From positions 7,626,001 through 7,690,000 of the forward strand of contig OZ024757.1 of NCBI GenBank assembly GCA_964016885.1: 64,000 nt of DNA, read 5' to 3'. Position numbers and translations under genes: made by a program. The notes beneath the pieces were generated by a model. That model had not been told where the DNA came from, searched no databases, and saw only the letters and a list, made by a program, of their open reading frames with translations. Within the stretch, counting starts at the first letter, position 1; each line of letters begins with the position of its first letter. Positions 7,087-54,364 of this stretch are shown here, in pieces. The DNA comes from Eledone cirrhosa (taxonomy: Eukaryota).

Positions 7087-7141
<55 letters not shown>

Positions 7142-7179
7142 GATATTAAACAAATGGAAAATATTTATAAAACCATATT

Positions 7180-7245
7180 TATTTCATTATACGTATTTCA
7201 GGGATACCATATTAAAAATATGGCATGCCTTCGTCAGATAAAATA
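7180..7245 (-). ncRNA. Minimal type I hammerhead ribozyme in the PLE terminal repeat
   Basis: Minus strand reads uauuuuau CUGACGA aggcaugccaua-loop-uaugguaucccu GAAA uacgua UA augaaaua: stem I and II pair, palindromic stem III, AUA cleavage triplet. Confidence 0.85.
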
Positions 7246-8071: not shown

Positions 8072-8207
8072 GAAAAAAGAAAAAAGAAAAAAGAAAAAAG
8101 AAAAAAGAAAAAAAGAAAAAAGAAAAAAGAAAAAAGAAAAAGAAAAAAGAAAAAAAGAAAAAAGAAAAAAGAAAAAAGAAAAAAGAAAAAAGAAAAAAGA
8201 AAAAAGA
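8072..8207. repeat. (GAAAAAA)n-type purine tandem repeat
   Basis: About 19 imperfect 7-mer units; the homologous site at 12320-12340 has only about 2. Confidence 0.9.
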
Positions 8208-8933: not shown

Positions 8934-9113
8934 TGTTTCTACTTTAGGCACAAGGCCAGCAATTACCCAGTGCATTACTGGTACTTTATTTTATCGACCC
9001 CGTAAGGATGAAAGGCAAAGTCAACCTCGGCGGGATTTGAACTCAGATCGTAAAGGGACGTAACTATGCTGGAAAGCATGGCGTCCGACCCTCTAGCGAT
9101 ACTGCCAATCCAC
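8934..9113 (-). mobile_element. tRNA-head SINE with Meta-like core, inserted in the PLE hammerhead
   Basis: A-box TGGCAGTATCG, B-box GAGTTCAAATC, core gcctttcatccttacggggtcgataaaataaagtacc; TSD TGTATAAT at 8926-8933 and 9114-9121. Confidence 0.9.
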
Positions 9114-9305
9114 TGTATAATGAAATAAATATGGTTTTATAAATATAGTTTCCATTTGTTTCATATCGTATATCTACTCCAAAATCTTATCGAGTGCTTT
9201 ATATCAGTTATAAAATATTTACTTGTAACCCAACAATTTTAAATGAAACTTTTGCGTATATTTTTGCTCCAATATTGTTGAGCGCTTTATATTATAACTG
9301 AAAAA

Positions 9306-11529
9306 ATGGAATTCTTTAAGATATCTTCTTCTCTAAAAGACATACCTTTACCTAGGAACAAAAACTTTATTAAACAATTAATAGAAAAATCAGACTCTTT
9401 TATAAGAAGAATCAGGTGGCGTGCCTTCCACTTTGATAAATCTAATCTAAATGAAAATGTTTCAGATTTGGATAACATTTTCAAATCTAAAAAAATCCAC
9501 ACCCAACAAACTATTAATGGATTTTGAAAACGATATAATTTTTATCATCCAAGGAATCAAATTCAAGAGAAACTTCAAAGGCCAGGACTATCTAGATGCA
9601 TTAAGGATAATATTGAAGGCTTGGAAAAACCAGAGAAGATCTTAGTGAAATCGAACAAACCAATAACCTTTATGGAGTACAAAAGGACATGTATAACGGC
9701 CTTATATTGAAAGAACTAAGGAAAAAGTACAAGGTAGCAAGTAAGGACGAACTGGAAAAAATGAATACAGAGGCATCTTGTATAATGCATGAATTAGACA
9801 TTGAGAATAAAACACAACCCTTCATGCCTAGGAAACCCAAGATCAATATGAAAGATCACAAAAGAAATTTTGAAAATGATTTGCCAGTCAGATTGATTGC
9901 ACCATCAAAATCTGACCTGGAAAAACTTAGAAAAAATATTCTAGACAGGGTAATACAGCAAATTAAAAAACTTACATAATTTACCTTACTTAAAGTTATG
10001 GAAGGGGACTGGTGAGGTTATTGAGTGGTTTAAAGAAATTAAATATAACTATAATAATAAATTTATTCAACTTGATATTGCTAACTACAATTCATCTATC
10101 ACTCCTAATCTACTGAATAAGGCACTAAATTACGCATTTAAACATACCGACCTAACTAGCAATGAAATGCACATTATATTATCGGCAAGGAAAACATTGA
10201 TAGAATTTAATAACCAACTATGGACTAGGGCAGATAGAGATAATAATTTCGACATAACTATGTGATCATCTGACTCAGCTCAGGTAACGGATCTTGTGGA
10301 CCTATTTATAATTAATTCGCTGCATAGAAAAATTCCAGGTGTAACCGGAGGATTATATCGTGATGACATGCTTTTACTTATTGAAAATAATAACTGTGAA
10401 CTAAATAGAAAAAGAAAACAAATTATACAATTTTTTAATTACCTTAATCTAAAAATAGAAATAGAGAATAACCATAGAATAGTCAATTTCCTGGATGTAA
10501 CACTAAATCTCAACACATGTCTTCACTATCCATTTCACAAACTAAATGAGAACTTGAATTATGTCAATTTTAACTCTAATCACCCCAGATCTGTTAAAAA
10601 TACTATAGTGAACTCTGTTCAAGAACGAATTTCAAGAATTTCATCTAATAAAAATATTTTTGATGAAAAAGTGCAGTATTACAATGAAGCGTTAGCTAGA
10701 GCAGGATATAGTGATAAAATTAAGTACATCGATAATAATAAGCAAACTAACCAAAATAATAACAATTTTAATTACGGTAACAACATTAACAACTATAATA
10801 GAAAACATTACAATAATTCCAAAAGCCGAAAAAGAGATAGAACTAGGAATATAATATTGTTTGCCCCCCCCCCTTATTTTCACTAAATATCAAAACCCAT
10901 ATTGTTAAACTATTTTTTAATGCTCTTGACAAACGCTTCGCTAGAACACATAAATATCACTCAATTTTTAATAGACATACTATAAAATTAACTTACTCGT
11001 CCACCAAAAATTTAGCACAAAATATTAACAGAATTAATAATAGGAATTTAAAACCTAACCAAAATACCAATAATAACCCAAACAATATTCAATTAAATAA
11101 CTGTAACTGTAGAAATAAATCTAACTGTCCGTTAAATAACAATTGCTTAGTTAAAAATGTAGTATACAATTGTAATGTTAAAACTAACTTAAATTCTTTC
11201 AACTATGTTGGTTCCACCTCGACAGAATTTAAACTTCGCTTCAATAATCATAAGAATTCTTTCACAATCCAAACAAAAAATCCTCAACCTCGCTATCAAG
11301 CCTACTCTGGCAACTTAAACGAGATAATGTTAAGTATTCGATGTTTTGGAATATTGTCTCAAAAGGGATTCCTTTTAATTCCTCATCAGAGACATGTGAT
11401 CTCTGTGTGGAGGAGGTATTCTTTATATTAAAGTCCAAACATTTCCTTACTTTAAGGAGCAATTTATTCAGTTGCTGCAGACATAGATTGAACTCAACGT
11501 TTAAATATAAATATAAATTTAAAATGTAG
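9306..11529 (+). pseudogene. Penelope-like RT + GIY-YIG ORF, more degraded copy
   Basis: Same motifs as 4733-6954, with more frameshifts and stops (ORF pieces 9306, 9451, 9689, 10296, 11341). Confidence 0.9.
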
Positions 11530-13166
11530 TATAATTAATTAAGAAATTTAGTTAATATATGAAACCTGACGATAAATCATTTGATTCCTTCACCTTTTTC
11601 TTTTTAAACCTTCTTCCTAAATATAAACAAAGATGTAATAAACTACTCTAAAATGTATATGCTCCCAATGTATTAAATACATTTTACGCAAGATAAATTT
11701 CTATACTAAATATAAGGGCATCCGTAGAATCACTGGGTCTTCTAAATCTTTTAAATAATTTTTGTTACATAATTTTTATTTTTTATTTTTTTACTCTAAT
11801 AGCTTCTAACTAACTTTGCAATATATTGTTTGAAATATAGGAAGGATAGATTTCTGTAGTAAATATATGAAGCATATTGTTTTTGGCCTGAGATACTGTA
11901 TAGTGTGTTGAAAGTATTTTAATGTTTTGATGTTTCTGTGCTGATATATTGATATTTGATTATCTCTATACAAAGGCCATATGTGTATTAACATGCATAT
12001 AGAAGGTTTATAGAGTTTATTTTATGTGTTCATGTGTCTGTATATGTGCGTAAAGATACTGGAAAACTCACGCAGATATTTTATATATACATATAAATAT
12101 ATATTTAGGTATGGTTCTGTATATGTTACAGATATGCATAATATTAAATACATGAACGGTAATCATATATGTGAGGACATGAATATTAATCGTATATTTT
12201 ATGTATATATACAGTGAAATTTTTATAACACAAGACATTTTTTTATGACACAAGAAATTATAGAGTTGATCAGGTGAAGTCATATGTATGTCTATATTAT
12301 TGACTAGAGTTAGACATAATTTTCTCTTTTTTCTTTTTTCAGGAAGTACATATACGTGTATATATATATACATATATATTTCCGTATTTTTATAAATAGG
12401 GTAATTTTTTGAAGGTTTTATCTCAGTTTTTGGTATATTGACCTCAGAGTTTTAAACTAAACATATGGTCATTATTGAACAATGTTATTTTCTCATATTA
12501 TATATATCTATGTCTCATTCATGAATATTGATATTTGCATTTTTGTTACCCATTTCATGTGAATTGATAATTCAAATTGATATGACATGACGTAAAGATG
12601 TAACTGTATCCTTCTCTCTCTATATATCACTTTCTCCTCTCTCTTGAGTTTATCTTTATGTATATTTATTATGTATCTGTCGCTTTCGTTTACCTCTCTT
12701 ATTTCTCTCTTGTTTCTTTTTCACTTCCTCTTATCTATTTATATTCTCTCTCTCTCTTTTTTTTCTCCTCCCCCTCTCTCTCTCCATTTTTTCTTTTTTC
12801 TTTATCTACGTTTTTTCTTTCTCTCCGTCTTTTTTCTAACTGTGCTTAACACTATAACTAAATAATTATTATCCTTCTCTCTCTATATAGGAATCCCTCT
12901 CTCTTGAGTTTCTCTATATGTATGGGGAATTATTATTTATCTGTTGCTTTCGTTTGCCTCTCTTATTTCTTTCTCCTATCTATTTATATATTTTTTCTCT
13001 CTCTCCCTTTCTTTCTCTCCGTTTCTTTCTCTCCGTCTTTCTTCTAACTGTGCTTAACACTATAACTAAATAATTATAGACAATTCATTATCCAGACAGC
13101 TTCCTAATATAATGGTCGCTTATAATATGGTACGTCAAAATTATTTATAAAACTGTTTATATATTG

Positions 13167-13232
13167 TATTTTATCTGACGAAGATATGCCATATTTTTAA
13201 TATGGTATCCCTGAAATATGTATAATGAAATA
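13167..13232 (+). ncRNA. Hammerhead ribozyme motif at the PLE 3' end
   Basis: tattttat CTGACGA agatatgccata..tatggtatccct GAAA tatgta TA atgaaata. Confidence 0.8.
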
Positions 13233-13563
13233 AATATAGTTTCCATTTGTTTAATATCGTATATATATATATGCATGTTAGTTGTAAATCACACAGGCAT
13301 TAGCAAAGCAATATTACATCCATACACTTAATAATGTTAAGTTAAACGTTTTTTTTTAAAATTATTTGAATGTCATTAATATTAACTGCATAACACATTC
13401 ATCTTCCTTACGTAACTGAGAAAAGGGACCAATATTGGGGATTAAAATGGTACCAAGAGATTGTGCAACATGTATTTCTTCAACATTTCTCATTTGTCAT
13501 TCTATTAATTTTTTTTCATTTTGTTTTATTTTATAATCTCAAACATATTATTGTTGCTGTTAA

Positions 13564-33057: not shown

Positions 33058-33077
33058 TTATTATTATTATTATTATT

Positions 33078-36000
33078 TTTTTTTTTTTGAGTCTCAGTCA
33101 TTGATGTTAGTTAACTGGAAAGTTTGTTGAAATGAATATCAAGCCACTACCTGCAGCCTCAGATATTCAGGACGTATCGGAGGGTTCTTGCTGTTCCCAG
33201 CAAGCATGCCTTTTGAAGCGTTCCAAAAAGCGTGAAGGGGCCAATTTTCTTTAACCATCCCTGGAAACTTTTGGAGATAGTCCCTAGTGCGCCTATGACA
33301 ATCGGGATCACTTTGACTTCATGGCAGTTCCAAATCCTTTTTACCTCCCACTTTAAGTCCTGGTATCGGTTAATTTTCTCCCTCTCCTTCTCTTGCACTC
33401 TCGTGTCGAATGGGCAGGCCACATCCACAATCAGACACGATCTTTTTTCTTTGTCCACAACCACCAGGTCAGGTCTATTGTGTTCCAGTTTCTTGTCCGT
33501 CTGTATCCTAAAATCCCACAGCACCTTCACCTGATCGTTTTCTATCACCGACTCTGGCTTATGCTCATACCACTTCCCAGAATGTGGTAAGTTGTTTACT
33601 TTGCACAGGTGCCAGTGGATCACCCTGCCCATCACATCATGTCTCCAGCCCTTATAGTGAGTCTGGGCTAGGTGTTTACATTCGGATACAATGTGAGCCA
33701 CAGTCTCCTCTCTCTCTCCACAGATCCTGCACAGTGGGCTAGCCTCCTCCTTGTAAATGTGGTGTTTCAACCACTTCGTTTTGAGGGCCTGCTCCTGCGC
33801 AGCCATTAACATTCCTTCTTTAGCCTTTTTAAGGTCTTCTCTTTTCAACCAGTTCCATGTCTGTGGATCTCTAAATTCAGTTTTCTCAAAGAAGGTACTA
33901 TGAAGGGATTTTTCCTGAAGACTTCTCTTTCTCCTTGATGTTATTTCCTCCTTGGACATCCCCTGGCCTATTGTCCTCTCCTTCAGTACATTTCTGAGCA
34001 TTGGCTCCTTACTATCAGTCACGTATTTGTGTAGGTTGTTTTTCTCCATCTGAACACAGTCCTCTATGCTGACAAGACCTCTTCCACCCTCAGATCTCCT
34101 TAAGTAGAGTCTATCGACATCACTCCTCTTGTGGAACATGTTGTAGATAGTCAATAGCTTCCTAGTCTTCCTATCCATTTCTTTTTGTTCAGCAACATTC
34201 CATCTCAGAATTCCCGCACTGTACCTAATAATAGACACAGCTCGGGTATTTACTGCACTTATGGCATTCCTACTGTTCAGATGTGACTTTAATACGCTCC
34301 TTACTCTCCGAAGGTATTCACTTCTTATCAATTCCTTCATTTTTTTTGTTCTTGATGTCATCAGCCTCCAGAACGCCCAAATACTTGTATCCTTCCTCAG
34401 AGTCAATTTCCTTTATCAACTCACCTGTTGGTATCTGGATTCCGTTACTTCTGCTCAACTTACTCCTCCTCATCACAATGACTCCACACTTACTAATACC
34501 AAATTGCATACATATGTCATTGCTGAAAATACGGACAGTGTCAACAAGCACATCCAACTCCTTCTCACTCTTCCCGAAGAGCTTAAGATCGTCCATGAAG
34601 AGGAGGTGATTGATGGTAAGCCCTCCCTTTTCCAACCTGTATCCTGCTCACACTTTTCGCAGTACACTGGTCAGGGGCATCAGGGCAAGGACAAACAACA
34701 GAGGGGAGAGACTATCTCCATGGAAGATACCTCTCTTGATCTTCACGCTTCCCAAGGATTCTCCAGTTGATGTTAACTCTGTTTCCCAGGACTTCATACT
34801 TTTGCCCAACAACTGTCTGATGTTATCTGCCACCTTGAAGATCTCCAGGCTTTTGGTGATCCAAGAATGAGGCACCATGTCAAATGCCTTTTTGTAGTCT
34901 ATCCATCCCATGGCAAGACCAGTGTGTCTTCTCTTGCAATTCCTCATTACCATCTTATCAATAAGTAACTGGTCCTTTGTACCACGTGACTTCTTTCGGC
35001 ATCCTTTCTGTTCGTCCGGTAACAAGTTGTTTGTGTGGAGGTGATGGTAGATTTCCTCAGACATAATGCTTGTCAACAGTTTCCACATTACGGACAGACA
35101 TGTGATAGATCTATAGTTGGTAACATCATTACCCTTGATTCGGTCTTTCATTATCAGAACTGTGGTACCTTTTGTCAACCACTCTGGTATCTCACCTGAC
35201 ATCAAGCAGTCATTGAACATGGTTATCAGTTTCGGGTGGAGGGATGTTATGTTTTTAATCCAATACCCCTGCACACCTTCTGGGCCAGGTGATGTCCAGT
35301 TGGTTAGTTTTTTGGCCTGCCCCTTAAGAGTTTCAACTGTGATACTCAAATCAGTTTGTTGGTGTGCCTGTTCACTGATCTCCTTCTGTACTGTCTCAAT
35401 CCACACTGCCTGGTCATTATGTTTAACATCCTGCTCCCATATTCCTCTCCAGAATGTTTTAGTTTGTTCCGCCTCAGGGATCAAGTCGTTGCCTCTTTCT
35501 TTCCCTTCAAGCTGTCCAAACAGCATCTTCTGGTTGTTGTCGAACATGCGGTTCTCTCTATACTGGCTGACTCTTTTCTCGTATCGCCTGATTTTTGTAC
35601 TCTTTGCTACAATGCGTTACTTCAGTTCTTCTATGATAATATTTAGCTTTTTCCTCCGAGTTTTTTACTTTATTTCCAGTCTATTTTTAGTATCTATGTT
35701 TTTTAGTGTCCCATTCAGTAGGGACTCAAGCTTTTCAATGTCATTTCTCATTTCCCTGATTTGACCACTCAGTCGTTTCTTCCACCAAGGCTCTGCTCTT
35801 TCTTGTCTGTTGTTTCCTCTCGCTTTTATACCAAGTAGTTTCCTCACCGTATATGCTGTTGCTTTGAGGATATTGTTGCACTGATGAAGGCTCCTCGCCT
35901 CAAGGTATGGGATGACTTTGTTTACCTTAGCTGTTGTTTCTTTTAACTTTTTCCTATCTACAAATCTTAGGTTCATAGGTCTCCCACTATCATTGTTCAA

Positions 36001-38158
36001 TTCATCTACCACTAAGTTTAGGATATCTACCAAATCTTGTCCTAGCCCGTCAGCATTCATCTCCTCAGTTGCCGTATCTCTGTTCCAGGTATTATTTATC
36101 TCAGCATTCAGATCATTGTCTGTTTCGGATGGTTCCTCCGTTCTCTCGACCTCCCCACCTTCATTTCCCACTGGCTCGCTTGCCTGGCATACTCCACCCT
36201 CCATCTCCAAGCTAATCTCTCTGCTCAGTTCTTCCAGTTCCAGCTCGCTTATCCACCCATTAGTTCTTATTACCCGAGCCTGCCCGGCCAGTTTTTGTTC
36301 ATCTAATTTAAATGGACCAATCTCGTTCCAGATGTTATGCATCCTTTTCCTATAGCCTTTCTCCTTGGGGTTACTCTTCAGGTAACATTGCATAACAGTT
36401 CTATTCAATTCTTTCGTCCAGTTGGTTCTGGTCTCTTTCCTTCTTCTTCTTCCTCCGACACCAGCAGTATTTGGTTGACAGCCAGGTCCCTGCTGCTGAG
36501 TCAGGGAGCACCTGTTGGGTGAGAGTCTGTCACATGACATTCTAGTCTCCATTTCACCGTTATTCGAACTGTTTAGGTTCGACATTTAAACACTCTTATC
36601 GAGGATTGGCGAATGTATGGTTACATAACCACCGGTGAATTACTTGTCTCCGGTGGTTTCGTCACTCCACGTGACTTTTGTGTGGCATTATCACGCTGTA
36701 GACGAACCCAAATAAACAAAGAAACAGGCAGAAAAAAACCCAAAAATGAATAAGCATAAGTTTCATTGTAATGTAGTGTTTGAATGTCTGACTTAGTTTT
36801 TCCCTTCCCTTCTCTGTCCGTCCGTTTGTTTTTCTCTTCATTTTTATTTCCTTTACGTTTTTCGTTGTTGCTGTGCTGCTTTGATTTTGATTTTTTTTTT
36901 TTGATTTTGACCAGGTCATCAATTCAGTCTATTTATATATTTTGATGCCTTCCTCTTTTAGTGAGAATTCTACAATGTAGCAGGAGCTATCGGGAGAGAA
37001 TAGCGGCGGTAGTGACAATGAGGCAGCGGTAGCGGCGATTGCGGTGCTGTGCCAGCAGCAACCAGCAGGAGGTAGTGGGAGAGAATAGCGGCGGTAGCGC
37101 TAATGAGGCAGCGGCGGTGGCGATGTGGTCGTATTATTGTAGCGATGGTGTTGAAGATGGAGTAGAAATTTGAGTCGACTTGACCAGGGTTTTCATCGTG
37201 GCAGTGGTGGTAGCACTGGTGGGAAAATTATCTTTAGTGAAATTATCATTAGTCGCGTATATGTGTTGACATAAATACCTTAATATTGGAATTAAACATT
37301 TTGTGAAAACTAAAACTTGATTTTGATTATTGTTTTTTTTTTTTTTGACCGGGTCATCAATTCAATCTATTTATATATTTTGGTGTTTTCCCCTTTTAGT
37401 GAGAATTCTACAATGTAGCAGGGGGTAGCGGGAGAGAATAGCGGCGGTAGTGATATTGAGGCAGCGGCGGCGGTGGTGGTGGCGGTGCTGTGCCAGCAGC
37501 AACTAGTAGAAGGTAGTGGGAGAGAGTAGCGGCGGTAGCGATAATGAGGCAGTGGTGGTGGTGATGATGTGGTCATATTACTGTAGTGATGGTGTTGAAG
37601 TTGGAGTAGAAATTTGAGTCGACTTGACCAGAGTTTTCATCGTGGTAGTGGTGGTGGTATTGGTGGTGAAATTATCTTTAGTGAAATTATCGTTAGTTGC
37701 GTATATGTGTTGACATAAATACCTTAATATTGGAATTAAACATTTTGTTAAAACTAAAACTTGAGGCAATAGAAATAGTAATTATTATTATTATGCTGAG
37801 ATTAGTGGTGGTGGTGGTAAAATTGCCGTTATCTGGCTGTTGTGTTTAGTGTACACAGAGGGGTAATGGGGTAGGTGGTGTATCTAGTTTCTGATGTTGG
37901 TGAAATTGCTGGTATTTGGCTGTTCTATATAGTGTAGACAGAGGGGGTTTTCTTCCATTTGTAACCATTTTCTCTTTTGAATATAAAATGTATAATACAA
38001 AATTGAATATTTGAGCGATATAACAATATATTGTGGATCCGAATTTTTTGGGACTCAAGCTGGATGTTTTATGCAACATTTGTACTAAGAATTGTTATTT
38101 CACAATTGATTTAAATATGTTAAAAAATCAAAACTTACGGGAGCGATTTCTCGACCTT
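33078..38158 (-). mobile_element. R4/Dong-like RLE retrotransposon family A, full-length, frameshifted (ORF 36585 to 33159)
   Basis: ORF pieces 35665-36585, 34648-35547, 34318-34635 and 33159-34406 are collinear with the intact 1130-aa ORF; (TAA)n on both sides; ~430-bp tandem duplication in the leader. Confidence 0.92.
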
Positions 38159-38178
38159 CTATTATTATTATTATTATT

Positions 38179-40119
38179 ACAGTTGCATTTATCTTGCTTT
38201 ATGTTCATACGAGTTATCACCAAGTCACAACCAGTGACCTCAAGAGACAACAAGCTCCGCCATGTTCAAGAAAGAACATACATACTCACACATGCATCTT
38301 TGGTGTTTAGACTTGTGATGTACTTATATTGACAGAATCTTCCTTAGTATATGGGCAGTTCCCATTAGTACTCTCTTTTGTATTTCTCCTATACGCGGGT
38401 TTCCTGGGATTTGCGATAAGTAATCATTAGACCCCTTAGGTATCATTCCCAGAGCGCCTACAACCACTGGTATTGTTTTAGTACTCAATTTCCACATTTT
38501 TCCAATTTCTATCTCCAGGTCCTTATACTTGCTAAATTTTTCAAATGTTTTTATAGATACATTCTTGTCTATTGGAACAGACATATCAATTAGCAGTCAT
38601 ACCCTCTTTTGAAAGTCCTTCAATATTATATCAGGTCTATTTGCATCTATTTTTCGGTCTGTTTGGATGCTAAAGTTCCACAAGATTGAGATGTGATCTT
38701 TTTCAAGTATGGGAGGTGGTTGATGCTCCCACCAATTCTTTTGATGGGGCAGGTCAAAATGCTTACACATTATCCAATGTATGTATTGTGCAGCTCTGTC
38801 ATGCCTGTTTAGGTATTCGGTTGGAGCTATAGGACTGCACATTGAAATTATATGGTCAATGCTCTCTGGTTGTTTTTTGCATACAGGGCATAATGGGCTG
38901 CACCCATTTTTTATTATGTTGGGTTGGTAATTTTTTGTTGGCAGACACTGATCTTGTGCTGATATAATCAGTCCTTCAGTCTCCGATTTCAGTCCAGAGG
39001 ATGCCAACCACTGATGGGTTAAAGTTTTGTCAACATCAGGATTGTTAGCTCGCTCTGGGTATTTTCCATATAGAGGCTTTTCTTGCCATTTCTTAGCCAG
39101 TTTCTGTAGCAGTTCTTTCTTTGCAGTTACTTTTACTTGTTTTGCTTTTTCTGTGTTTTCCATTTCAGCAGTAAATGGGACTTCTGAAATTTGTAGTCCA
39201 TTACTGTATCTTTGTGCATCTTTTGTAATGGAATATGATCTTTTGATGCTTTCGTGTTTCAAAACGAGTTTGATCATCCAATCATGTGATTCCCTTAGAT
39301 ATGTAGATAATCCAATTGTTGCAGTTTTCAACGCAATGTCTAACTGAATTAACCCACGTCCTCCTTCTTTCCTAGGGAGATATATTCTATCTATATCTGC
39401 CTTAGGGTGATGCATTCTGTGCATGGTTAAGAATTTTCGAATTTTTGTATCGAGCCTATGGATCTCTGTGCTTGACCAGTTGATGACATTGTAACTGTAG
39501 GTTTCTACTGGTATGGCAAGCGTGTTTATGGCATCGATCCTATTCCTTGCATTCAATTCCGTTCTTAAGATTGCTCTGACTCTGCGGTAACATTCCTTCC
39601 TTATCCTTTCCCACATTGTCGAGTGCTTGATTCCGTCTCCTTCACAAACACCTAGATATTTGTAAGTTTTTTCTTGATCAAGTTCTCTTATCACGTTCCC
39701 CCGATCAAGATTAATGTCTGAACTCTTCAGCAGCTTTCCTCTGCTGAACGTTGCTTTGGCGCATTTATCTAGTCCAAACTCCATTTTAATGTCATCACTG
39801 AACTGCTCCACAGTGGATAATAGACCTTGCAATTGTTCATCATTTATTGCAAATAGTTTCAGGTCATCCATGTAGAACAGGTGATTAATGGTTTTGTCAT
39901 AGACTTTATATCCATGTTTTGTTTCATTGAGCATTTTACTTAATGGTATATGTGCGATGCAGAATAAAAGCGGTGATAAAGAGTCACCCTGAACAATTCC
40001 ACAATTAATATTAACCTCTCCAGCTTCCAGTGATTTTGTTTCACTATTCAAAAGGAGTGTCGTTTTCCATGTTTTCATACTGAATGACAAAAACCTCCTG
40101 ACAACGGGGGATATTTTGA

Positions 40120-40120
<1 letters not shown>
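38179..40120 (-). mobile_element. Dong-like family B, 5'-truncated
   Basis: QGDSLSPLLF, FYMDDLK, YKYLG, RKEGGRGL, CPVC..H..C, RHD, RPD; (TAA)n flanks. Confidence 0.92.
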
Positions 40121-40164
<44 letters not shown>

Positions 40165-40170
40165 GTTGTT

Positions 40171-41531
40171 ATTCCTTGAATCTCAGTCATTGATGTTGGT
40201 TAACTGGAAAGTCCGTTGGAATGAATATCAAGCCACTACCTGCAGCCTCAGATATTCAGGACGTATCGGAGGGTTCTTGCTGTTCCCAGCAAGCATGCCT
40301 TTTGAAGCGTTCCAAAAAGCGTGAAGGGGCTGATTTTCTTTAACCATCCCTGGAAACTTTTGGAGATAGTCCCTAGTGCGCCTATGACAATCGGGATCAC
40401 TTTGACTTCATGGCAGTTCCAAATCCTTTTTACCTCCCACTTTAGGTCCTGGTATCGGTTAATTTTCTCCCTCTCCTTCTCTTGCACTCTCGTGTCGAAT
40501 GGGCAGGCCACATCCACAATCAGACACGATCTTTTTTCTTTGTCCACAACCACCAGGTCAGGTCTATTGTGTTCCAGTTTCTTGTCCGTCTGTATCCTAA
40601 AATCCCACAGCACCTTCACCTGATCGTTCTCCGTCACCGCCTCTGGCCTATGCTCATACCATTTCTCAGAATGTGGTAAATTGTTTACTTTGCACAGGTG
40701 CCAGTGGATCACCCTGCCCATCACATCATGTCTCCAGCCCTTATAGTGGGTCTGGGCTAGGTGTTTACACTCGGATACAATGTGAGCCACAGTCTCCTCT
40801 CTCTCTCCACAGATCCTGCAGAGTGTGCTAGCCTCCTCCTTGTAAACATGGTGCTTCAACCACTTCGTTTTGAGGGCCTGCTCCTGCGCAGCCATTAGCA
40901 TTCATTCTGTAGCCTTTTTGAGGTCTCCTCTTCTCAACCAGTTCCATGTCTGTGGATCTGTAAATTCAGTTTTCTCAAAGGAAGGTACTATGAAGGGATT
41001 TTCCCTGAAGGTTGCTTTTTCTCCTTGATGTTATTTCCTCCTTGGACATCCCCTGGCCTATTGTCCTCTCCTTCAGTACAGTTCTGAGCATTGGCTCCTT
41101 ACTATCAGTCACGTATTTGTATAGGTTGTTTTTCTCCATCTGAACACTGTCCTCTATGCTGATAAGACCTCTTCCACCCTCAGATCTCCTTAGGTAGAGT
41201 CTATCGACATCACTCCTCTTGTGGAACATGTTGTAGATAGTCAATAGCTTCCTAGTCTTCCTATCCATTTCTTTTTGTTCAGCAACATTCCATCTCAGAA
41301 TTCCCGCACTGTACCTAATAATAGACACAGCTCGGGAATTTACTGCGCTTATGGCATTTCTGCTGTTCAGATGTGACTTCAATACGCTCCTTATTCTCCG
41401 AATGTATTCAGTTCTTAACAATTCCTTCATTTTTTTGTTCTTTATGCCATCAGCCTCCAGAACTCCCAAATACTTGTATCCTTCCTCAGAGTCAATTTCC
41501 TTTATCATTTCACCTGTTGGTATCTGGATTC

Positions 41532-41533
<2 letters not shown>
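40171..41533 (-). mobile_element. Dong-like family A, 5'-truncated
   Basis: Matches the 3' 1.36 kb of A; truncated at gtatctggattcc. Confidence 0.92.
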
Positions 41534-41574
<41 letters not shown>

Positions 41575-41576
<2 letters not shown>

Positions 41577-43506
41577 AGTTGCATTTATCTTGCTTTATGT
41601 TCATACGAGTTATCACCAAGTCACAACCAGTGCCCGCAAGAGACAACAAGGTACGCCATGTTCAAGAAAGAACATACATACTCACACATGCATCTTTAGT
41701 GTTTAGACTTGTGATGTACTTATATTGACAGAATCTTCCTTAGTATATGGGCAGTTCCCATTAGTACTCTCTTTTGTATTTCTCCTATACGCGGGTTTCC
41801 TGGGATTTGCCATAAGTAATCATTAGACCCCTTAGGTATCATTCCGAGAGCGCCTACAACTACTGGTATTCTTTTAGTTCTCAATTTCCACATTTTTCCA
41901 ATTTCTATCTCCAGGTCCTTATACTTGCTCAATTTTTAAAATGTTTTTATAGATACATTCTTGTCTATTGGAACAGACATATCAATTAGCAGGCATACCC
42001 TCTTTTTAAAGTCCTTCAATATTATATCAGGTCTATTTGCATCTATTTTTCGGTCTGTATGGATGCTAAAGTTCCACAAGATTGAGATGTGATCTTTTTC
42101 AAGTATGGGAGGTGGTTGATGCTCCCACCAATTCTTTTGATGGGGCAGGTCAAAATGCTTACACATTATCCAATGTATGTATTGTGCAGCTCTGTCATGC
42201 CTGTTTAGGTATTTGGTTGGAGCTATAGGACTGCACATTGAAATTATATGGTCAATGCTCTCTGGTTGTTTTTTGCATACACGGCATAATGGGCTGCACC
42301 CATTTTTTATTATGTTGGCTTAGTAATTTTTTGTTGGTAATTTGTGCTGATATAATCAGTCCTTCAGTCTCCGATTTCAGTCCAGAGGATGCCAACCACT
42401 GATGGGTTAAAGTTTTGTCAACATCAGGATTGTTAGCTCGCTCTGCGTATTTTCCATATAGAGGCTTTTCTTGCCATTTCTTAGCCAGTTTCTGTAGCAG
42501 TTCTTTCTTTGCAGTTACTTTTACCTGCTTTGCTTTTTCTGTGTTTTCCATTTCACCAGTAAATGGGACTTCTGAAATTTGTAGTGCATTACTGTATCTT
42601 TGTGCATCTTTTGTAATGGAATATGATCTTTTAATGCTTTCGTGTTTCAAAACGAGTTTGATCATCCAATCATGTGATTCCCTTAGATATGTAGATAATC
42701 CAATTGTTGCAGTTTTCAACGCAATGTCTAACTGGATTAACCCACGTCCTCCTTCTTTCCTAGGGAGGTATATTCTATCTATATCTGCCTTATGGTGATG
42801 ATTCTGTGCATGGTTAAGAATTTTCGAATTTTTGTATCGAGCCTACGGATCTCTGTGCTTGACCAGTTGATGACATTGTAACTGTAGGTTACTACTGGTA
42901 TGGCAAGCGTGTTTATGGCATCGATCCTATTCCTTGCATTCAATTCCGTTCTTAAGATTGTTCTTACTCTGCCGTAACATTCCTTCCTTATCCTTTCCCA
43001 CATTGTCGAGTGCTTGATTCCGTCTCCTTCACAAACACCTAGATATTTGTAAGTTTTTTCTTGATCAAGTTCTCTTATCATGTTCCCCCGATCAAGATTA
43101 ATGTCTGAACTCTTCAGCAGCTTTCCTCTGGTGAACGTTGCTTTGGCGCATTTATCTAGTCCAAACTCCATTTTAATGTCATCACTGAACTGCTCCACAG
43201 TGGATAATAGACCTTGCAATTGTTCATCATTTATTGCAAATAGTTTCAGGTCATCCATGTAGAACAGGTGATTAATGGTTTTGTCATAGACTTTATATCC
43301 ATGTTTTGTTTCATTGAGCATTTTACTTAATGGTATATGTGCGATGCAGAATAAAAGCGGTGATAAAGAGTCACCCTGAAAAATTCCACAATTAATATTA
43401 ACCTCTCCAGCTTCCAGTGATTTTGTTTCACTATTCAAAAGGAGTGTCGTTTTCCATGTTTTCATACTGAATGACAAAAACCTCCTGACAACGGGGGATA
43501 TTTTGA

Positions 43507-43507
<1 letters not shown>
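41575..43507 (-). mobile_element. Dong-like family B, 5'-truncated at the same base as 38179-40120
   Basis: Shared end acaacgggggatattttgaa. Confidence 0.92.
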
Positions 43508-43545
<38 letters not shown>

Positions 43546-43552
43546 GTTGTTA

Positions 43553-44913
43553 TTCCTTGAATCTCAGTCATTGATGTTGGTTAACTGGAAAGTCCGTTGG
43601 AATGAATATCAAGCCACTACCTGCAGCCTCAGATATTCAGGACGTATCGGAGGGTTCTTGCTGTTCCCAGCAAGCATGCCTTTTGAAGCGTTCCAAAATG
43701 CGTGAAGGGGCCGATTTTCTTTAACCATCCCTGGAAACTTTTGGAGATAGTCCCTAGTGCGCCTATGACAATCGGGATCACTTTGACTTCATGGCAGTTC
43801 CAAATCCTTTTTACCTCCCACTTTAGGTCCTGGTATCGGTTAATTTTCTCCCTCTCCTTCTCTTGCACTCTCGTGTCGAATGGGCAGGCCACATCCACAA
43901 TCAGACACGATCTTTTTTCTTTGTCCACAACCACCAGGTCAGGTCTATTGTGTTCCAGTTTCTTGTCCGTCTGTATCCTAAAATCCCACAGCACCTTCAC
44001 CTGATCGTTCTCCGTCACCGCCTCTGGCCTATGCTCATACCATTTCTCAGAATGTGGTAAATTGTTTACTTTGCACAGGTGCCAGTGGATCACCCTGCCC
44101 ATCACATCATGTCTCCAGCCCTTATAGTGGGTCTGGGCTAGGTGTTTACACTCGGATACAATGTGAGCCACAGTCTCCTCTCTCTCTCCACAGATCCTGC
44201 AGAGTGTGCTAGCCTCCTCCTTGTAAACATGGTGCTTCAACCACTTCGTTTTGAGGGCCTGCTCCTGCGAAGCCATTAGCATTCATTCTGTAGCCTTTTT
44301 GAGGTCTCCTCTTCTCAACCAGTTCCATGTCTGTGGATCTGTAAATTCAGTTTTCTCAAAGGAAGGTACTATGAAGGGATTTTCCCTGAAGGCTGCTTTT
44401 TCTCCTTGATGTTATTTCCTCCTTGGACATCCCCTGGCCTACTGTCCCCTCCTTCAGTACAGTTCTGAGCATTGGCTCCTTACTATCAGTCACGTATTTG
44501 TATAGGTTGTTTTTCTCCATCTGAACACTGTCCTCTATGCTGATAAGACCTCTTCCACCCTCAGATCTCCTTAGGTAGAGTCTATCGACATCACTCCTCT
44601 TGTGGAACATGTTGTAGATAGTCAATAGCTTCCTAGTCTTCCTATCCATTTCTTTTTGTTCAGCAACATTCCATCTCAGAATTCCCGCACTGTACCTAAT
44701 AATAGACACAGCTCGGGAATTTACTGCGCTTATGGCATTTCTGCTGTTCAGATGTGACTTCAATACGCTCCTTATTCTCCGAATGTATTCAGTTCTTAAC
44801 AATTCCTTCATTTTTTTGTTCTTTATGCCATCAGCCTCCAGAACTCCCAAATACTTGTATCCTTCCTCAGAGTCAATTTCCTTTATCATTTCACCTGTTG
44901 GTATCTGGATTCC
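43553..44913 (-). mobile_element. Dong-like family A, 5'-truncated at the same base as 40171-41533
   Basis: Same truncation point and the same private frameshift (tcaaaggaagg). Confidence 0.92.
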
Positions 44914-44948
44914 ATTATTATTATTATTATTATTATTGTTATTGTTAT

Positions 44949-47900
44949 TCCTTGAATCTCAGTCATTGATGTTGGTTAACTGGAAAGTCCGTTGGATTGA
45001 ATATCAAGCCACTACCTGCAGCCTCAGATATTCAGGACGTATCGGAGGGTTCTTGCCGTTCCAAGCAAGCATGCCTTTTGAAGCGTTACAAAAAGCGTGA
45101 AGGGGCCGATTTTCTTTAACCATCCCTGGAAACCTTTGGAGATAGTCCCCAGTGCGCCTATGACAATCGGGATCACTTTGACTTCATGGCAGTTCCAAAT
45201 CCTTTTCACCTCCCACTTTAGGTCCTGGTATCGGTTAATTTTCTCCCTCTCCTTCTCTTGCACTCTTGTGTCGAACGGGCAGGCCACATCCACAATCAGG
45301 CACGATCTTTTTTCTTTGTCCACAACCACCAGGTCAGGTCTATTGTGTTCCAGTTTTTTGTCCGTCTGTATCCTAAAATCCCACAGCACCTTCACCTGAC
45401 TGTTCTCCATCACCGCCTCTGGCCTATGCTCATACCATTTCTCAGAATGTGGTAGATTGTTTACTTTGCACAGGTGCCAGTGGATCACCCTGCCCATCAC
45501 ATCGTGTCTCCAGCCCTTATAGTGGGTCTGGGCTAGGTGTTTACACTCGGACACAATGTGAGCCACAGTCTCCTCTCTTTCTCCACAGATCCTGCACAGT
45601 GGGCTAGCCTCCTCCTTGTAGATATGGTGCTTCAACCACTTCGTTTTGAGGGCCTGTTCCTGCGCAGCCATTAGCATTCCTTCTGTAGCCTTTTTGAGGT
45701 CTCCTCTTCTCAACCAGTTCCATGTCTGTGGATCTCTAAATTCAGTTTTCTCAAAGAAGGTACTATGAAGGGATTTTCCCTTAAGGCTGCTCTTCCTCCT
45801 TGATGTTATTTCCTCCTTGGGTATCCCCTGGCCTACTGTCCCCTCCTTCAGTACAGCTCTGAGCATTGGCTCCTTACTATAGGTCACGTATTTGTATAGG
45901 TTGTTTTTCTCCATCTGAACACAGTCCTCTATGCTGATAAGACCTCTTCCACCCTCAGATCTCCTTAGGTAGAGTCTATCGACATCACTCCTCTTGTGGA
46001 ACATGTTGTAGATAGTCAATAGCTTCCTAGTCTTCCTATCCATTTCTTTTTGTTCAGCAACATTCCATCTCAGAATTCCCGCACTGTACCTAATAATAGA
46101 CACAGCTCGGGAATTTACTGCGCTTATGGCATTTCTGCTGTTCAGATGTGACTTCAATACGCTCCTTACTCTCCGAATGTATTCAGTTCTTAACAATTCC
46201 TTCATTCTTTTGTTCTTTATGCCATCAGCCTCCAGAACTCTCAAATACTTGTATCCTTCCTCAGAGTCAATTTCCTTTATCATCTCACCTGTTGGTATCT
46301 GGATCCCGTTACTTCTGCTCAACCTACCCCTCCTCATCACAATGACTCCACATTTACCAATACCAAACTGCATACATATATCACTGCTGAAAATACGGAC
46401 AGTGTCAACAAGCACATCCAACTCCTTCTCACTTTTCCCGAAGAGCTTAAGATCGTCCATGAAGAGGAGGTGATTGATGGTAAGCTCTCCCCTTCCCAAC
46501 TTGTATCCTGCTCTCACTTTTCGCAGCATAATGGTCAAGGGCATCAGGGCAAGGACAAACAACAGAGGGGACAGGCTATCTCCCTGGAAGATACCTCTCT
46601 TGATCTTCACGCTTCCCAAGGATACTCCAGTTGATGTCAACTCTGTCTCCCAGGACCCCATACTCCTGCCCAGCACCTGTCTGATGTTATCTGCCACCCT
46701 GAAGATCTCCAGGCTTTTGGTGATCCAGGAATGAGGCACCATGTCAAATGCCTTTCTGTAGTCTATCCATCCCATGGCAAGATCAGTGTGTCTCCTCCTG
46801 CAATTCCCCATTACCATCTTATCAATAAGTAACTGGTCCTTTGTACCACGTGACTTCTTTCGGCATCCTTTCTGTTCGTCCGGCAACAAGTTGTTTGTGT
46901 GGAGGTGATGGTAGATTTCCTCAGACACAATGCTCGTCAACAGTTTCCACATTACGGGCAGACATGTGATAGGTCTATAGTTGGTAACATCATTACCCTT
47001 GATTCGGTCTTTCATTATCAGAACTGTGGTACCTTTTGTCAACCACTCTGGCACCTCACCCGACACCAAGCAGTCATTGAACATGGCCGTCAGCTTCGGG
47101 TGGAGGGATGTTAAATGCTTAATCCAATACCCCTGCACACCATCTGGGCCTGGTGATTTCCAGTTGGTTAGTTTTTTGGCTTGCCCCTTAAGAGTTTCAA
47201 CTGTGATACTCAAATCAGTCTGTTGCTGTGCCTGCTCACCGATCTCCCTCTGTACTGTCTCAATCCACCCTGCCTGGGCATTGTGTCTAACATCCTGCTC
47301 CCATATTCCTCTCCAGAATGTTTTAGCTTGTTCCGCCCCAGGGATCAAGTCGTTGCCTCTTTCTTTCCCCTCAAGCTGTCCAAACAGCATCTTCTGGTTG
47401 TTGTCGAACATGCGGTTCTGTTTATACTGACTGACTCTGTTCTCGTATCGCCTGATTTTGGCACTCTTTGCTACAATGCGTTGCTTCAATTCCTCTATGA
47501 TAATATTTAGCTTTTTACTCCTAGTTTTGTATTTTATTTCCAGTCTATTTTTAGTGCCTATGTTTTTTAGTGTCCCATTCAGTAGTGACTCAAGCTTTCC
47601 TATGTCATTTCTCATTTCCCCGATTTGCCCACTCAGTCGCTTCTTCCACCACGGCTCTGCTCTTTCTTGTCTGTTGTTTCCTCTCGCTTTTATACCAAGT
47701 AGTTTCCTCACCGTATTTGCTGTTGCTTTGAGGATATTGTTGCACTTGTGAAGACTGCTCGCCTCAAGGTATGGGATGACTTTGTTTACCTTAGCTGTTG
47801 TTTCTTTTAACTTTTTCCTGTCTACAAATCTTAGGTTCATAGGTCTCCCACTATCATTGTTCAACTCATCTACCACTAAATTTAGGATGTCAACCGAATC

Positions 47901-49473
47901 TTGTCCTAGCCCGTCAGCATTCATCTCCTCAGTGGCCGTATCTCTGTTCCAGGTATTATTTATCTCAGTATTCAGATCATTGTCTGCTTCGGGTGGTTCC
48001 TCCGTTCTCAGGACCTCCTCACCTTCATTTCCCGCCGGCTCGCTTGTCTGGCATACTACACCCGCCATCTCCAAGCCATTCTCTCTGCTCAGTTCCTCCA
48101 GTTCCAGCTCGCTTATCCACCCATTAGTTCTTATTACCCGAGCCTGCCCGGCCAATTTTTGTTCATCTAATTTAAATAAACCAATCTCGTTCCAGATGTT
48201 ATGCATCCGTCTCCTGTAGCCCCTCTCCTTGGGGTTACTTTTCAGGTAGCATTGCATAACAGTTCTATTCAATTCTTTCGTCCAGTTGGTTCTGGCCCCT
48301 TTCCTTCTTCTTCTTCCTCCAACATCAGCAGTATTTGGTTGACAGTCAGGTTCCTGCTGCTGAGCCAGGGGGCACCTGTTGGGTGAGAGTCTGTCACATG
48401 ACGTTCTAGTCTCCATTTCACCGTTATTCGAACTGTTTATGTTCGATATTTAAACACTCTTATCGAGGATTGGCGAATGTATGTTTACATAGCCATCTGT
48501 GGATCCGCCATCCCACTTGGCCCTTGTGTGGCATTATCACCACGCTGTAGACGAACACAAATAAACAAACAAACACACGGGCAGAAAGGGCCCCAAAAAT
48601 GAATAAGCATAAGTTTCATTGTAATGTAGTATTCGAATGTCTGACTTAGTTTTTGTTTTTTAAGTTTTACTTTTTCCCCCCTCTTCTCTGTCCGTCCGCC
48701 TGCTTCTCTCTTCATTCTTATTTTCTTTACGTTTTTGGGGTTTCTTTTTTTGTTTTTGTTTTTCTCTGTTTTTCTCGTTTTTTACTGTTGTTGCTGTGCT
48801 GCTTTTGTTGTTTGTTTTTTCTTTTTTCTTTTGAGTCTATCTATATATTTTGATGCCTTCCTCTTTGTTAGTAGTAGGAATTCTATAATGTGGAAGTGGT
48901 AGCCAGCAGAGACTGGCGGCGTTGGCGATACTGAGACAGTGGTGGTGGTGATGTCGATACCGAGGCAGTGGTGGCGGTGATGCGACCGTATTACTGTAGT
49001 GATGGTGCTGTAGCGGTGGCAGCAGCAGTGAAGGAGTCAGGGGGTGGTGGCGGCGGTGATGGGATAGTGGTGGTAATGATGGCCGTAGTGAGCGGTGGCG
49101 GTGAAGGTGAAAATGCTGTTGTGTTTAGTGTACACAGATGATGGGGTGGGTGGTGTATCTAGTTTCTGGTGTTGGTGAGTTTAGCTGTCCTATATAGTGT
49201 AGCCAGAGGAGAGGAGGGGGGGGGGGGTTCTTCTTCTTCCATTTATAGCCATTTTTTTTTGGATATACAGTGTACAATACAAAGTTGAATATTTGAATAT
49301 TTGAGCCTTATAACAATATATTTTGGGTCCGAATTTTTTTGGGGCTCAAGCCGGGTGCTTTACGTAGCATTTGTACTAAGAGTTGTTATTTCACAAATGA
49401 TTTAAATATGTTAAAAATTCAAAACTTACGGGAGCGATTTCATGACCTCCGTCACCTCGTGCGTCTTCTTCCC
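44949..49473 (-). mobile_element. Dong-like family A, full-length, potentially active copy
   Basis: Intact ORF, ~1-kb leader, (TAA)n on both sides. Confidence 0.93.
45024..48416 (-). CDS. R4/Dong-type single ORF: N-terminal domain, RT, CCHC knuckle, restriction-like endonuclease (1130 aa)
   Basis: NYRPITCL, EQKGC, WIDYRKAFDMVPH, GIFQGDSLSPLLF, LFMDDL, RSEGGRGL, CRIC..HIVSEC, RHD, NRPD..DVACP, K..RYQDL. Confidence 0.93.
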   Translation of the reverse strand: METRTSCDRLSPNRCPLAQQQEPDCQPNTADVGGRRRRKGARTNWTKELNRTVMQCYLKSNPKERGYRRRMHNIWNEIGLFKLDEQKLAGQARVIRTNGWISELELEELSRENGLEMAGVVCQTSEPAGNEGEEVLRTEEPPEADNDLNTEINNTWNRDTATEEMNADGLGQDSVDILNLVVDELNNDSGRPMNLRFVDRKKLKETTAKVNKVIPYLEASSLHKCNNILKATANTVRKLLGIKARGNNRQERAEPWWKKRLSGQIGEMRNDIGKLESLLNGTLKNIGTKNRLEIKYKTRSKKLNIIIEELKQRIVAKSAKIRRYENRVSQYKQNRMFDNNQKMLFGQLEGKERGNDLIPGAEQAKTFWRGIWEQDVRHNAQAGWIETVQREIGEQAQQQTDLSITVETLKGQAKKLTNWKSPGPDGVQGYWIKHLTSLHPKLTAMFNDCLVSGEVPEWLTKGTTVLIMKDRIKGNDVTNYRPITCLPVMWKLLTSIVSEEIYHHLHTNNLLPDEQKGCRKKSRGTKDQLLIDKMVMGNCRRRHTDLAMGWIDYRKAFDMVPHSWITKSLEIFRVADNIRQVLGRSMGSWETELTSTGVSLGSVKIKRGIFQGDSLSPLLFVLALMPLTIMLRKVRAGYKLGRGELTINHLLFMDDLKLFGKSEKELDVLVDTVRIFSSDICMQFGIGKCGVIVMRRGRLSRSNGIQIPTGEMIKEIDSEEGYKYLRVLEADGIKNKRMKELLRTEYIRRVRSVLKSHLNSRNAISAVNSRAVSIIRYSAGILRWNVAEQKEMDRKTRKLLTIYNMFHKRSDVDRLYLRRSEGGRGLISIEDCVQMEKNNLYKYVTYSKEPMLRAVLKEGTVGQGIPKEEITSRRKSSLKGKSLHSTFFEKTEFRDPQTWNWLRRGDLKKATEGMLMAAQEQALKTKWLKHHIYKEEASPLCRICGEREETVAHIVSECKHLAQTHYKGWRHDVMGRVIHWHLCKVNNLPHSEKWYEHRPEAVMENSQVKVLWDFRIQTDKKLEHNRPDLVVVDKEKRSCLIVDVACPFDTRVQEKEREKINRYQDLKWEVKRIWNCHEVKVIPIVIGALGTISKGFQGWLKKIGPFTLFVTLQKACLLGTARTLRYVLNI

Positions 49474-49535
<62 letters not shown>

Positions 49536-49537
<2 letters not shown>

Positions 49538-52500: not shown

Positions 52501-53495
52501 TAGAGATGATTTAAATCAGTAATGTTTAGTTTGTTTGTGATGATAATGTTTTTGAGAATTATGTTAGTCTTGTGTATTATCTTTTGGTTCTGTTTGGAGT
52601 TCTGGATCTTAGGGAGGGTGTCTCGTTGCCCCATGTCAGATTCTTTCATTTTCATCCATTCGATCATAATTTCATCCTTCAAGTTGGCAAGTTCATTCTC
52701 ATTCATTTCTTTATCATTTACGATCTCATTATTTTCATTTGGAGTTTCATCCTGAGCATGCACTCCCTCCACTTTTTCGCTCCTTTCTTTAATTTGTTCT
52801 GTTGCCAGTGATTCCGCCCCAACTCTGGGATTCGAAGTGTTACAGTTTACCTCGTTTTCACTGACACGTGCTTCATTTTCCCTTCGCTGACTTTGTGCTA
52901 CTAGCTTGATCTGATCAATTTCTATATCAGTTAGTAACTTTTTTCTTACAATATTTCTTCGTATATTGGCTAGTTTGTTACTGTCAATATAGCCTCTGTT
53001 TTCGGGATGTTTCTTTTTTCAGTTGATATATGTTTGTTCTGTATTCGATGTATTTGATGGGTAGTACATGGCAGTGTAGAAAGCCTCAAGGACTTCTTTA
53101 TTATCTTCCCTTGACCATTTTTCTCTCTTTTTCTTTGGATTTCTTGGTGGTGAGCATGGAGGGCCAACAGTAGGAGTATTCCGGTTATGGGAGGTCTCCA
53201 GCTCCGAAGTGATGGGAAGGTTTGAACCATTAGCTGATTTTTCGAACCCAGTCTGGTTCCTCTCTGAGGGACGCGGCCCTTTTTTACCCGGGTGACGGCC
53301 GATGCGGTATGAGATTTTATCATTAGACATTTACTTTATTTTGTCGCGTTTTATCCTTATCCGCCAAGGGGTAATCATTTCGTGTTACCACTTCTAGAAC
53401 GAGTGTCAACCAAGACTAGAGGGGTCGTTCTCCCCTAGAGACATGGCTATTCCCCGCCGGCCGCCATCCCGGTATTTCTTGGTCACGGGGTTTTC
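49536..53495 (-). mobile_element. Dong-like family B, full-length, frameshifted (ORF about 53330 to 49681)
   Basis: ORF pieces 53019-53330, 52149-52772, 50748-52106, 49897-50688, 49681-49893 with the same domain order as A but clearly diverged protein. Confidence 0.9.
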
Positions 53496-53589
53496 TTTTT
53501 TTTTTTTTTTTTTTTTTAATTAAATTGTTATTATCATGAGTGGTTCCTTAATGTGAGCATTGCGTGGCTTAAGAATGAAATTATTAATA

Positions 53590-54360
53590 ATTGTCTCCAC
53601 TCCAGGCACAAGGCCAGCAATCACCCAGTGCATTACAATAATATAATATACTTTTTGTTGTAGTTGGCTGTTATTGTTGTTGGCTATGCCGGTGGTGGTG
53701 CCGGGGCTTTTTATATTGTTGGTGAGGAAGGGGTGAGCCAGCAGTCCCATAATTGTTGATGTAGACGTTTGGCCGTGGCAAGGTCACCAAGTCAGTCTAT
53801 TTATATCTTTTGCTAGCCTCTCTCTTGTCTAGTGCTACCGTCACCTTCCCTTTTCTCTCTCAAGTTAACAGGGGAATAGTGTCAGTAGCATTGAATGAGT
53901 GGTGGCGGCGATGATGGATGTGGTGGGGTGGTGGCAGCGGTGGTGTTGTGGTTACTGATATAGTATCTATGAGTTTGTGTTCGTATGTTTAATATATATT
54001 TTCATTATATTTTGTGTTGACATATTCCCGTAAAATTTGAATTAAACATTTTTTAAAATTTGAGACAATAATACTAGTAATTATTATTATGATGCTGGTG
54101 ATATTATATTTAGTGTGATGGGATAGGTAGTGTATCAAGTGTATCAAGTTTCTGGTGTAGGTGAAATTGAAATTGCCGCTGTTCTATATAGTGTAGACAG
54201 AGGGTGTTTTGTTCCATTTATAACCATTTTCTTTTTTGAATACAAAATATATAATACAAAATTGAATATTTGAGCGATACAACAATATAATATGGATTCG
54301 AAACTTTATGGGACCTCATTCGGTGCCTTTATGCAACATTTGTGCTAAGAATAGTTCTTT
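53590..54360 (-). mobile_element. Copy of the family-A 5' leader module followed by a SINE-type 3' tail
   Basis: 54180-54355 closely matches 37921-38100 and 49190-49390; 53600-53635 is the SINE tail gcactgggtgattgctggccttgtgcc. Confidence 0.7.
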
Positions 54361-54364
54361 CTTA

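Follow-up and report, generated by a model that had tools for sequence, protein, structure and literature searches.

An intron-shaped 5' leader in a Dong/R4-like retrotransposon family that inserts into TAA arrays

Introduction

To our knowledge, the transcription and translation of retrotransposons that encode a restriction-like endonuclease (RLE) and reside outside the rDNA are poorly known, and the cases that have been studied involve a ribozyme and co-transcription. Dong and R4 start with an HDV-like ribozyme, and Dong inserts with TAA repeats at its junctions, as stated in the relevant sections of PMC3774820. For Octopus vulgaris, an excerpt of PMC13282606 describes Dong-R4 elements as abundant and recently active, with 1129 recent insertions that amount to 4.73 Mb. 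A 5' UTR with splice signals is found in human L1, which has a conserved donor and a conserved acceptor and most of whose RNA is unspliced. Retrotransposition of the spliced L1 5' UTR RNAs occurs in cis and yields promoter-poor, dead-end copies termed SpIREs, which make up about 2% of the full-length copies (PMC5860796, in the portion that deals with these copies).

Here we analyse a retrotransposon family, termed family A, that is found in a 64,000-nt stretch of genomic DNA (the whole stretch is referred to as the window). Its open reading frame (ORF) is preceded by a long leader that has the shape of a spliceosomal intron.

Results

Family A resembles Dong and R4

Retroelements inserted in (TAA)n arrays form a nest that makes up the right half of the window. 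Family A is represented in it by two minus-strand copies that are nearly full length, A1 and A2, and by three 5'-truncated pieces. A2 (44950..49473) is full length, flanked by (TAA)n and has an uninterrupted reading frame, a single open frame of 1141 codons (45024..48446, minus strand) that encodes a reverse transcriptase (RT), a CCHC finger and a restriction-like endonuclease. In A1 (about 33076..38160) the ORF is split into three frame pieces (35665-36585, 34648-35616 and 33159-34412, minus strand). Alignment with 15 homologues places the likely ORF start at an ATG in A1 (36585) and at an ATA at the same place in A2 (48446), the next ATG of A2 being found at 48416. The RT of A2 matches Pfam RVT_1 (E 6e-22), and the CCHC finger at residue 951 is followed by the endonuclease motifs RPDL at 1036 and VDVACP at 1052. 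The top solved-structure matches of the A2 protein are R2 proteins. A single ORF in which the RT is followed by the CCHC finger and then by a PD-(D/E)xK-type restriction-like endonuclease is the organization of the R4/Dong clade. Members of this clade are not known to have an N-terminal zinc finger, and no C2H2-like pattern is present in the first 400 residues of the A2 protein. Moreover, TAA arrays are found at both ends of the full-length as well as of the 5'-truncated copies, which is how Dong-type insertions look. Judged by its domains and its TAA junctions, family A appears to be a Dong/R4-like RLE retrotransposon; in a 40-row RT tree that contains no named R4 or Dong sequence it is found among unnamed relatives, adjoining P0002/P0003.

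The window contains a second element of the same kind, family B, which is 45% identical to A across the RT region. The region 38160-44949 is a tandem duplication of a 3.4-kb unit, composed of a B 3' part and an A 3' part, whose copies are 98% identical and share the same truncation points, indicating that several copies arose at the DNA level and not by separate insertions. Tx1/L1-like elements are found on the plus strand, and a Penelope-like element is present in two inverted copies (4117-13382), with an RT-like ORF (5818-6978) and a GIY-YIG-like ORF (4733-5413), as judged by inspection; its look-alikes in the atlas are RT-type clusters. The SINE of the window looks octopus-like. Taken together, the repeat mix (Dong-R4, L1-Tx1, Penelope, SINE) resembles that reported for coleoid cephalopods in parts of PMC8967140 and PMC13282606. 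A scan of IMG/VR with family A gave no match, a scan of GTDB gave 18 distant loci, none of which is close to the identity level of A, and ARAGORN found nothing.

The leader is part of family A

Contigs of the public runs X1, X4 and X5 cover positions 46900-49478 in 30 of 30 bins. The summed depth in X1, which reflects abundance and not copy number, is 19,000-89,000 in the leader bins versus 86,000-367,000 in the ORF; in X5 it is 9-60 versus 38-220. Moreover, X4 and X5 each contain one contig that matches the 5' end of A2 with zero substitutions. The leader is part of family A. We also considered that it might be mere flanking host DNA, which was ruled out since in both copies it adjoins the TAA junction, and its depth in X1 is high. 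A hidden ORF1 within the leader was likewise rejected, the longest stop-free run being 95 codons on either strand.

Sequences nearly identical to A are listed for many coded organisms (runs X5-X20), and the X5 contigs, which have a low depth, are almost the same as A2. About 1% of a Hi-C run (X23) of organism F contained one read with A sequence. Library carry-over seems a more likely cause of these occurrences than wide horizontal spread.

The leader has the anatomy of an intron

The original prediction had proposed a spliceosomal intron that spans almost the whole leader, and its positions could be reproduced. On the minus strand the donor CCC/GTAAGT begins exactly at 38138 in A1 and at 49429 in A2, and the acceptor sequence TCGTCTACAG ends exactly at 36696 and 48545, respectively. 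The donor is found 22 nt (A1) and 44 nt (A2) past the (TAA)n junction, within the 20-45 nt that had been given, and the intervals measure 1443 nt and 885 nt, in agreement with the proposed 1.44 and 0.89 kb. The proposed distance of about 110-130 nt between acceptor and ORF holds for A1, where 111 nt separate it from the ATG at 36585; in A2 the ATA at 48446 is only 99 nt away.

In A2, a first segment of 44 nt (49430..49473, putative exon 1), which abuts a (TAA)21 array (49474-49536) and is covered by X1, X4 and X5 contigs, is followed by the 885-nt interval (48545..49429). The latter starts with GTAAGT at 49429, contains branch-like YTNAY adenines at 48610, 48604 and 48600 and ends with a T-rich tract and a YAG at 48545; a second acceptor-like AG, which is C-rich, is present at 49008. 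The proximal 5' UTR (48447..48544, putative exon 2) resembles the final 80 nt of the short UTR of some relatives. The first segment of A1 (38139..38160, 22 nt) corresponds to the 3' half of the 44-nt segment of A2, to which it is identical at 20 of 22 positions. It is followed by the 1443-nt interval (36696..38138), which runs from GTAAGT at 38138 to YAG at 36696 and has branch-like adenines at 36757, 36751 and 36747, and by a proximal 5' UTR (36586..36695) with a 9-bp hairpin. All these features are on the minus strand. The 558-nt difference in length between the two intervals is mostly due to a tandem duplication within the A1 leader (36881..37764; 444 nt, 2.0 copies, 89%).

By generic matrices, the interval shows the anatomy of a U2-type intron: GT..AG ends, a GTRAGT donor, a branch motif and a polypyrimidine tract. 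The two signals differ in strength. The donor matches the consensus on the intron side only; scored with a generic weight matrix that was not trained on the host, the two donors rank 188-189 among the 6990 GT sites of the window (top 2.7%) and are surpassed by several GTs inside the ORF. With an equally generic matrix, the acceptor ranks first among the sense-strand AGs of the element, of which there are 404 in A1 and 401 in A2. It is preceded by an AG-free zone of 92 nt (A1) or 96 nt (A2), by branch-like motifs 52-66 nt upstream and by an abrupt change from A-rich to T-rich sequence. The acceptor is a much stronger signal than the donor. Acceptor-like cut-offs are reached at 11 sites in 128 kb (both strands), which include both family A acceptors and the AG at 49008. 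Based on window frequencies, the probability of finding GTAAGT within a given 50 nt is about 0.009, and that of finding such an acceptor within a given 150 nt is about 0.013, both being post hoc estimates. The pairing of donor and acceptor is probably not due to chance. At neither splice site did folding reveal a significant structure (z -1.3 to +0.5), and a short frame that crosses the predicted junction stops within about 20 codons beyond it.

An alternative is that these motifs are incidental. The leader would then be a fast-evolving, low-complexity promoter region that is never spliced, its AG would be inherited and its T-rich tract would have another job, for example as an antisense poly(A) signal or a translation element. 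A donor without the exonic consensus, which scores below some sites in the ORF, fits this explanation. Against it speak a GTAAGT that is found 22-44 nt from the 5' end together with the best acceptor of the element about 100 nt before the start codon, complete with its AG-free zone and branch-like motifs, and the two low post hoc chance estimates, which apply to each site separately. We consider incidental motifs unlikely, albeit the most serious of the alternatives.

The splice sites are as similar as descent predicts

Donor and acceptor had also been described as conserved while the sequence between them differs. Both copies do share the two sites, which is what descent alone leads one to expect. 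The ORFs of A1 and A2 are 94% identical, and at this level the eight signal bases would match by descent alone with a probability of 0.43-0.61. The bases at the interval ends differ at 9 of 127 positions and third codon positions at 93 of 1140 (8.2%; P 0.40), and the interior is unusually divergent (97/585). The ends have diverged less than the interior (P 0.0014, from two copies only), yet no less than third codon positions, which is a point in favour of incidental motifs. The interior evolves fast, and the match between the copies is no evidence of selection on the splice sites.

A third, older leader-like segment (53520-54361, minus strand) is located directly upstream of family B. It is 85% identical to A1 over 228 nt and 69% to A2 (about 230-250 nt), and it terminates in a SINE-like fragment and poly(A). 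This segment shows that the leader has older variants. It carries neither the donor nor the acceptor, as would be expected if the motifs were incidental.

Leaders of related elements are short

A metagenome scan yielded 79 relative loci; the upstream DNA was inspected for 38 of them, and leaders were measured in the 26 that have a usable start. In the 20 of these 26 that have an upstream TAA anchor the leader is 118-529 nt long, compared to 1.0-1.6 kb in family A. Among these 20, GTRAGT is found in two and an acceptor-like AG in two, and both are combined only in L070, inside a tRNA-like head. Compared with the 20 TAA-anchored relatives, the leader of family A is atypical for its clade. Searches of the open-access literature listed no paper on an intron in the 5' UTR of an RLE-encoding element, and entries in Repbase or Dfam may already catalogue the family and its leader. 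A blastn search with the family A leader gave no match at E<=1e-3 among 97 relative loci.

Rfam found no ribozyme or other meaningful match in positions 30000-64000 of the window and no ribozyme in 16 relatives. An HDV descriptor, used without a positive control, had no hit in A and none in 26 relatives.

The last ~100 nt before the start codon of A align with the final 80 nt of the UTR of three relatives (L002, L033 and L035), and this alignment begins at the acceptor. The z-scores are 4.7-5.3 for A1 and 3.0-4.2 for A2, and the A1 score was reached by 0 of 1000 shuffles; the similarity was seen in three of nine relatives, of which L033 and L035 are almost one and the same element, with gap costs that were chosen after the match had been seen. 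Profiles of the relatives' UTRs used in nhmmer recovered family B (E 1.7e-9) and not A. If the similarity is real, the part of the ancestral UTR nearest the ORF would have been preserved in A, and all sequence upstream of it exchanged. The relatives have a YAG at the position aligned to the acceptor, so that the acceptor AG may be plain inheritance, as the incidental-motif explanation supposes. The proximal-UTR motif had no match in 4.1 million characters of the supplements of PMC9115989 (four of eight files).

The 5' ends of the relatives are diverse. The 5' UTR of family B (53360-53498, minus strand) has a conserved block of ~140 nt in common with the distant relatives L002, L003, L033, L035 and L062, which was recovered by nhmmer with a profile built without B (E 1.7e-9) and has no Rfam match; it is a candidate for an unnamed RNA structure. 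Another motif is shared by L005, L006, L008, L009, L011, L018, L019, L023 and L026 within the first 60 nt after the TAA run. It looks capable of forming a pseudoknot and is possibly an unrecognised self-cleaving ribozyme; Rfam gave no match in the carriers scanned. L004, L007, L053, L070 and L080 are RLE elements with tRNA-like or other SINE-like heads, that of L053 scoring as a tRNA in Rfam, which suggests frequent swapping of 5' modules in the clade. Finally, the distant relative L010 has at ~124-235 a GTGAGT, ~110 nt of AT-rich sequence and an AG shortly before the start codon that is below the acceptor cut-off, a possible small 5' UTR intron.

Contigs run unbroken across both predicted junctions

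Splicing itself, as originally proposed, finds no support in the contigs. A joint 48544-49430, which would result from skipping of the intron, is absent from the 15 best-supported of 41 contig joints, which have depths of 10-15, and this too is compatible with incidental motifs. In X4, record 14 (48266-48620, 355 nt, depth 145) spans the acceptor unbroken, and record 16 (49295-49478, 204 nt, depth 156) spans the donor unbroken. In X5 the two junctions are likewise bridged by continuous contigs (records 22 and 24, depth 28 and 20). Since rare variants are lost from Logan contigs, a minor spliced form, or a class of intronless copies at the level of 2%, would go unseen. As to genomic copies that lack exactly the interval, neither of the two full-length copies in the window is of this kind, and no such joint is listed for X1 or X5.

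X4 comprises 88 million letters, compared to 1381 million for X1 from the same coded organism. Its dominant contigs carry the A2 letters at positions where X1 and X5 mostly differ (e.g., 47489, 47517 and 47532) and show two differences that are not found in X1 or X5 (48005 and 48337). Moreover, the 5' end is deeper than the main ORF contigs (61-77). These features suggest that X4, for which the kind of data is not recorded, represents expressed sequence from few loci. If X4 is RNA, the unspliced form dominates there; strand and tissue are unrecorded, and read-through or antisense RNA would look alike. Most of the RNA appears not to undergo splicing.

In X4 the leader interior (48620-49307) has bins of 499-4269, one single contig reaching 404, which is far above the junctions and the ORF and unlike X1 and X5. 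Leader-derived non-autonomous RNAs, excised intron or unrelated low-complexity contigs could each produce this pattern.

The original prediction had further envisaged a division of labour between a spliced mRNA for translation and an unspliced RNA as the transposition template. In its full form, splicing would be efficient, and the unspliced RNA would be chosen in trans as the template, as in retroviruses. Splicing would indeed leave a 5' UTR of 132-142 nt in place of 1.0-1.6 kb and reduce the upstream ATGs from 18 to 2 in A1 and from 11 to 5 in A2, and a strict selection of templates predicts that common intronless copies are lacking. However, upstream ATGs would persist in both copies after splicing, the unsplit junction contigs of X4 are deeper than its main ORF contigs, the spliced joint is not among the best 15 of 41, no template-selection signal was identified within the interval and, as reported in the section of PMC5860796 on spliced L1 RNAs, such RNAs are copied in cis. 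This division has no direct support, and we regard it as improbable.

Still less probable is that the acceptor serves as an exon trap or trans-splice site, which would join upstream host exons, or a spliced leader if the host has one, to the ORF upon read-through from a host promoter and so replace the job of the Dong/R4 ribozyme. An acceptor that is far stronger than the donor would fit such a role, and so would the contrast with Dong and R4, which free their RNA from co-transcripts by a 5' HDV-like ribozyme (PMC3774820, in the part that concerns these elements), of which Rfam found none in A. However, among the loose contig ends listed, none is at 48544-48545 with foreign sequence attached, the nearest one, in X4 at 48541, belongs to an A1-like form of the proximal UTR, and the full-length copies have a first segment of their own.

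Discussion

Our best explanation is that family A is a TAA-inserting element whose intron-shaped leader of 1.0-1.6 kb likely derives from a host gene, likely contains an internal promoter and is likely spliced rarely, if at all. As a whole we give this explanation about an even chance; that the leader is intron-derived is probable. An ancestor would have lost all but the final ~100 nt of the clade's UTR, and 5' transduction by read-through would have supplied host sequence in front of it, namely a short first exon plus an intron. If promoter elements are located inside the interval, only copies that keep it would found new copies. The unspliced RNA would be the usual template and probably also the RNA that is translated, as cis preference would demand; that copies keep the interval would then be explained by the reverse-transcribed RNA being unspliced. 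Occasional splicing would produce promoterless dead-end copies like the SpIREs of L1, and so act as a brake and not as a step in expression. Several points speak against this explanation. Translation of the ORF past the upstream ATGs of the full leader, 18 in A1 and 11 in A2, is unexplained, the interval ends show no less divergence than third codon positions, the similarity to the relatives' UTR was missed by the nhmmer profiles, and the acceptor AG may be inherited.

A bolder proposal is that a captured spliceosomal intron has replaced the ribozyme-type 5' end, and that regulated splicing sorts the RNA. Translation would then use the spliced form, and only the form that retains the intron, recognised through it, would be copied. 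We think this doubtful. If true, sorting by splicing would mean that a non-LTR element divides labour between its RNAs much as a retrovirus does and dispenses with cis preference. R2/R4-type proteins are under development as gene-insertion tools, and a splicing that is both regulated and template-selective would represent a new expression strategy for such proteins. If splicing is rare, the picture of the L1 SpIREs would be repeated in another clade. A high-copy family with a long, intron-shaped and fast-diverging leader suggests L1-style swapping of 5' modules in this clade, and family A offers a simple test of cis preference, in which intronless copies and junction reads are counted.

With Dong of Bombyx mori and R4 of Ascaris, family A shares the single ORF that encodes an RT, a CCHC finger near the C-terminus and a restriction-like endonuclease, and with Dong its TAA junctions. 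It differs from them at the 5' end, where theirs is a ribozyme and that of A an intron-shaped leader. In human L1, according to the same part of PMC5860796 as above, the donor is likewise near the 5' end and the acceptor near the ORF, with an intron across most of a promoter-bearing UTR of ~1 kb. L1, however, has two ORFs and an apurinic-type endonuclease, whereas family A is a single-ORF RLE element, and the splicing and the intronless copies of L1 have been demonstrated, whereas the interval of family A is putative and its role as a promoter only inferred. TART of Drosophila is another non-LTR element with introns in its transcripts (PMC1636488). The TART introns are removed from antisense RNAs, whereas the signals of family A, an RLE element, are on the sense strand.
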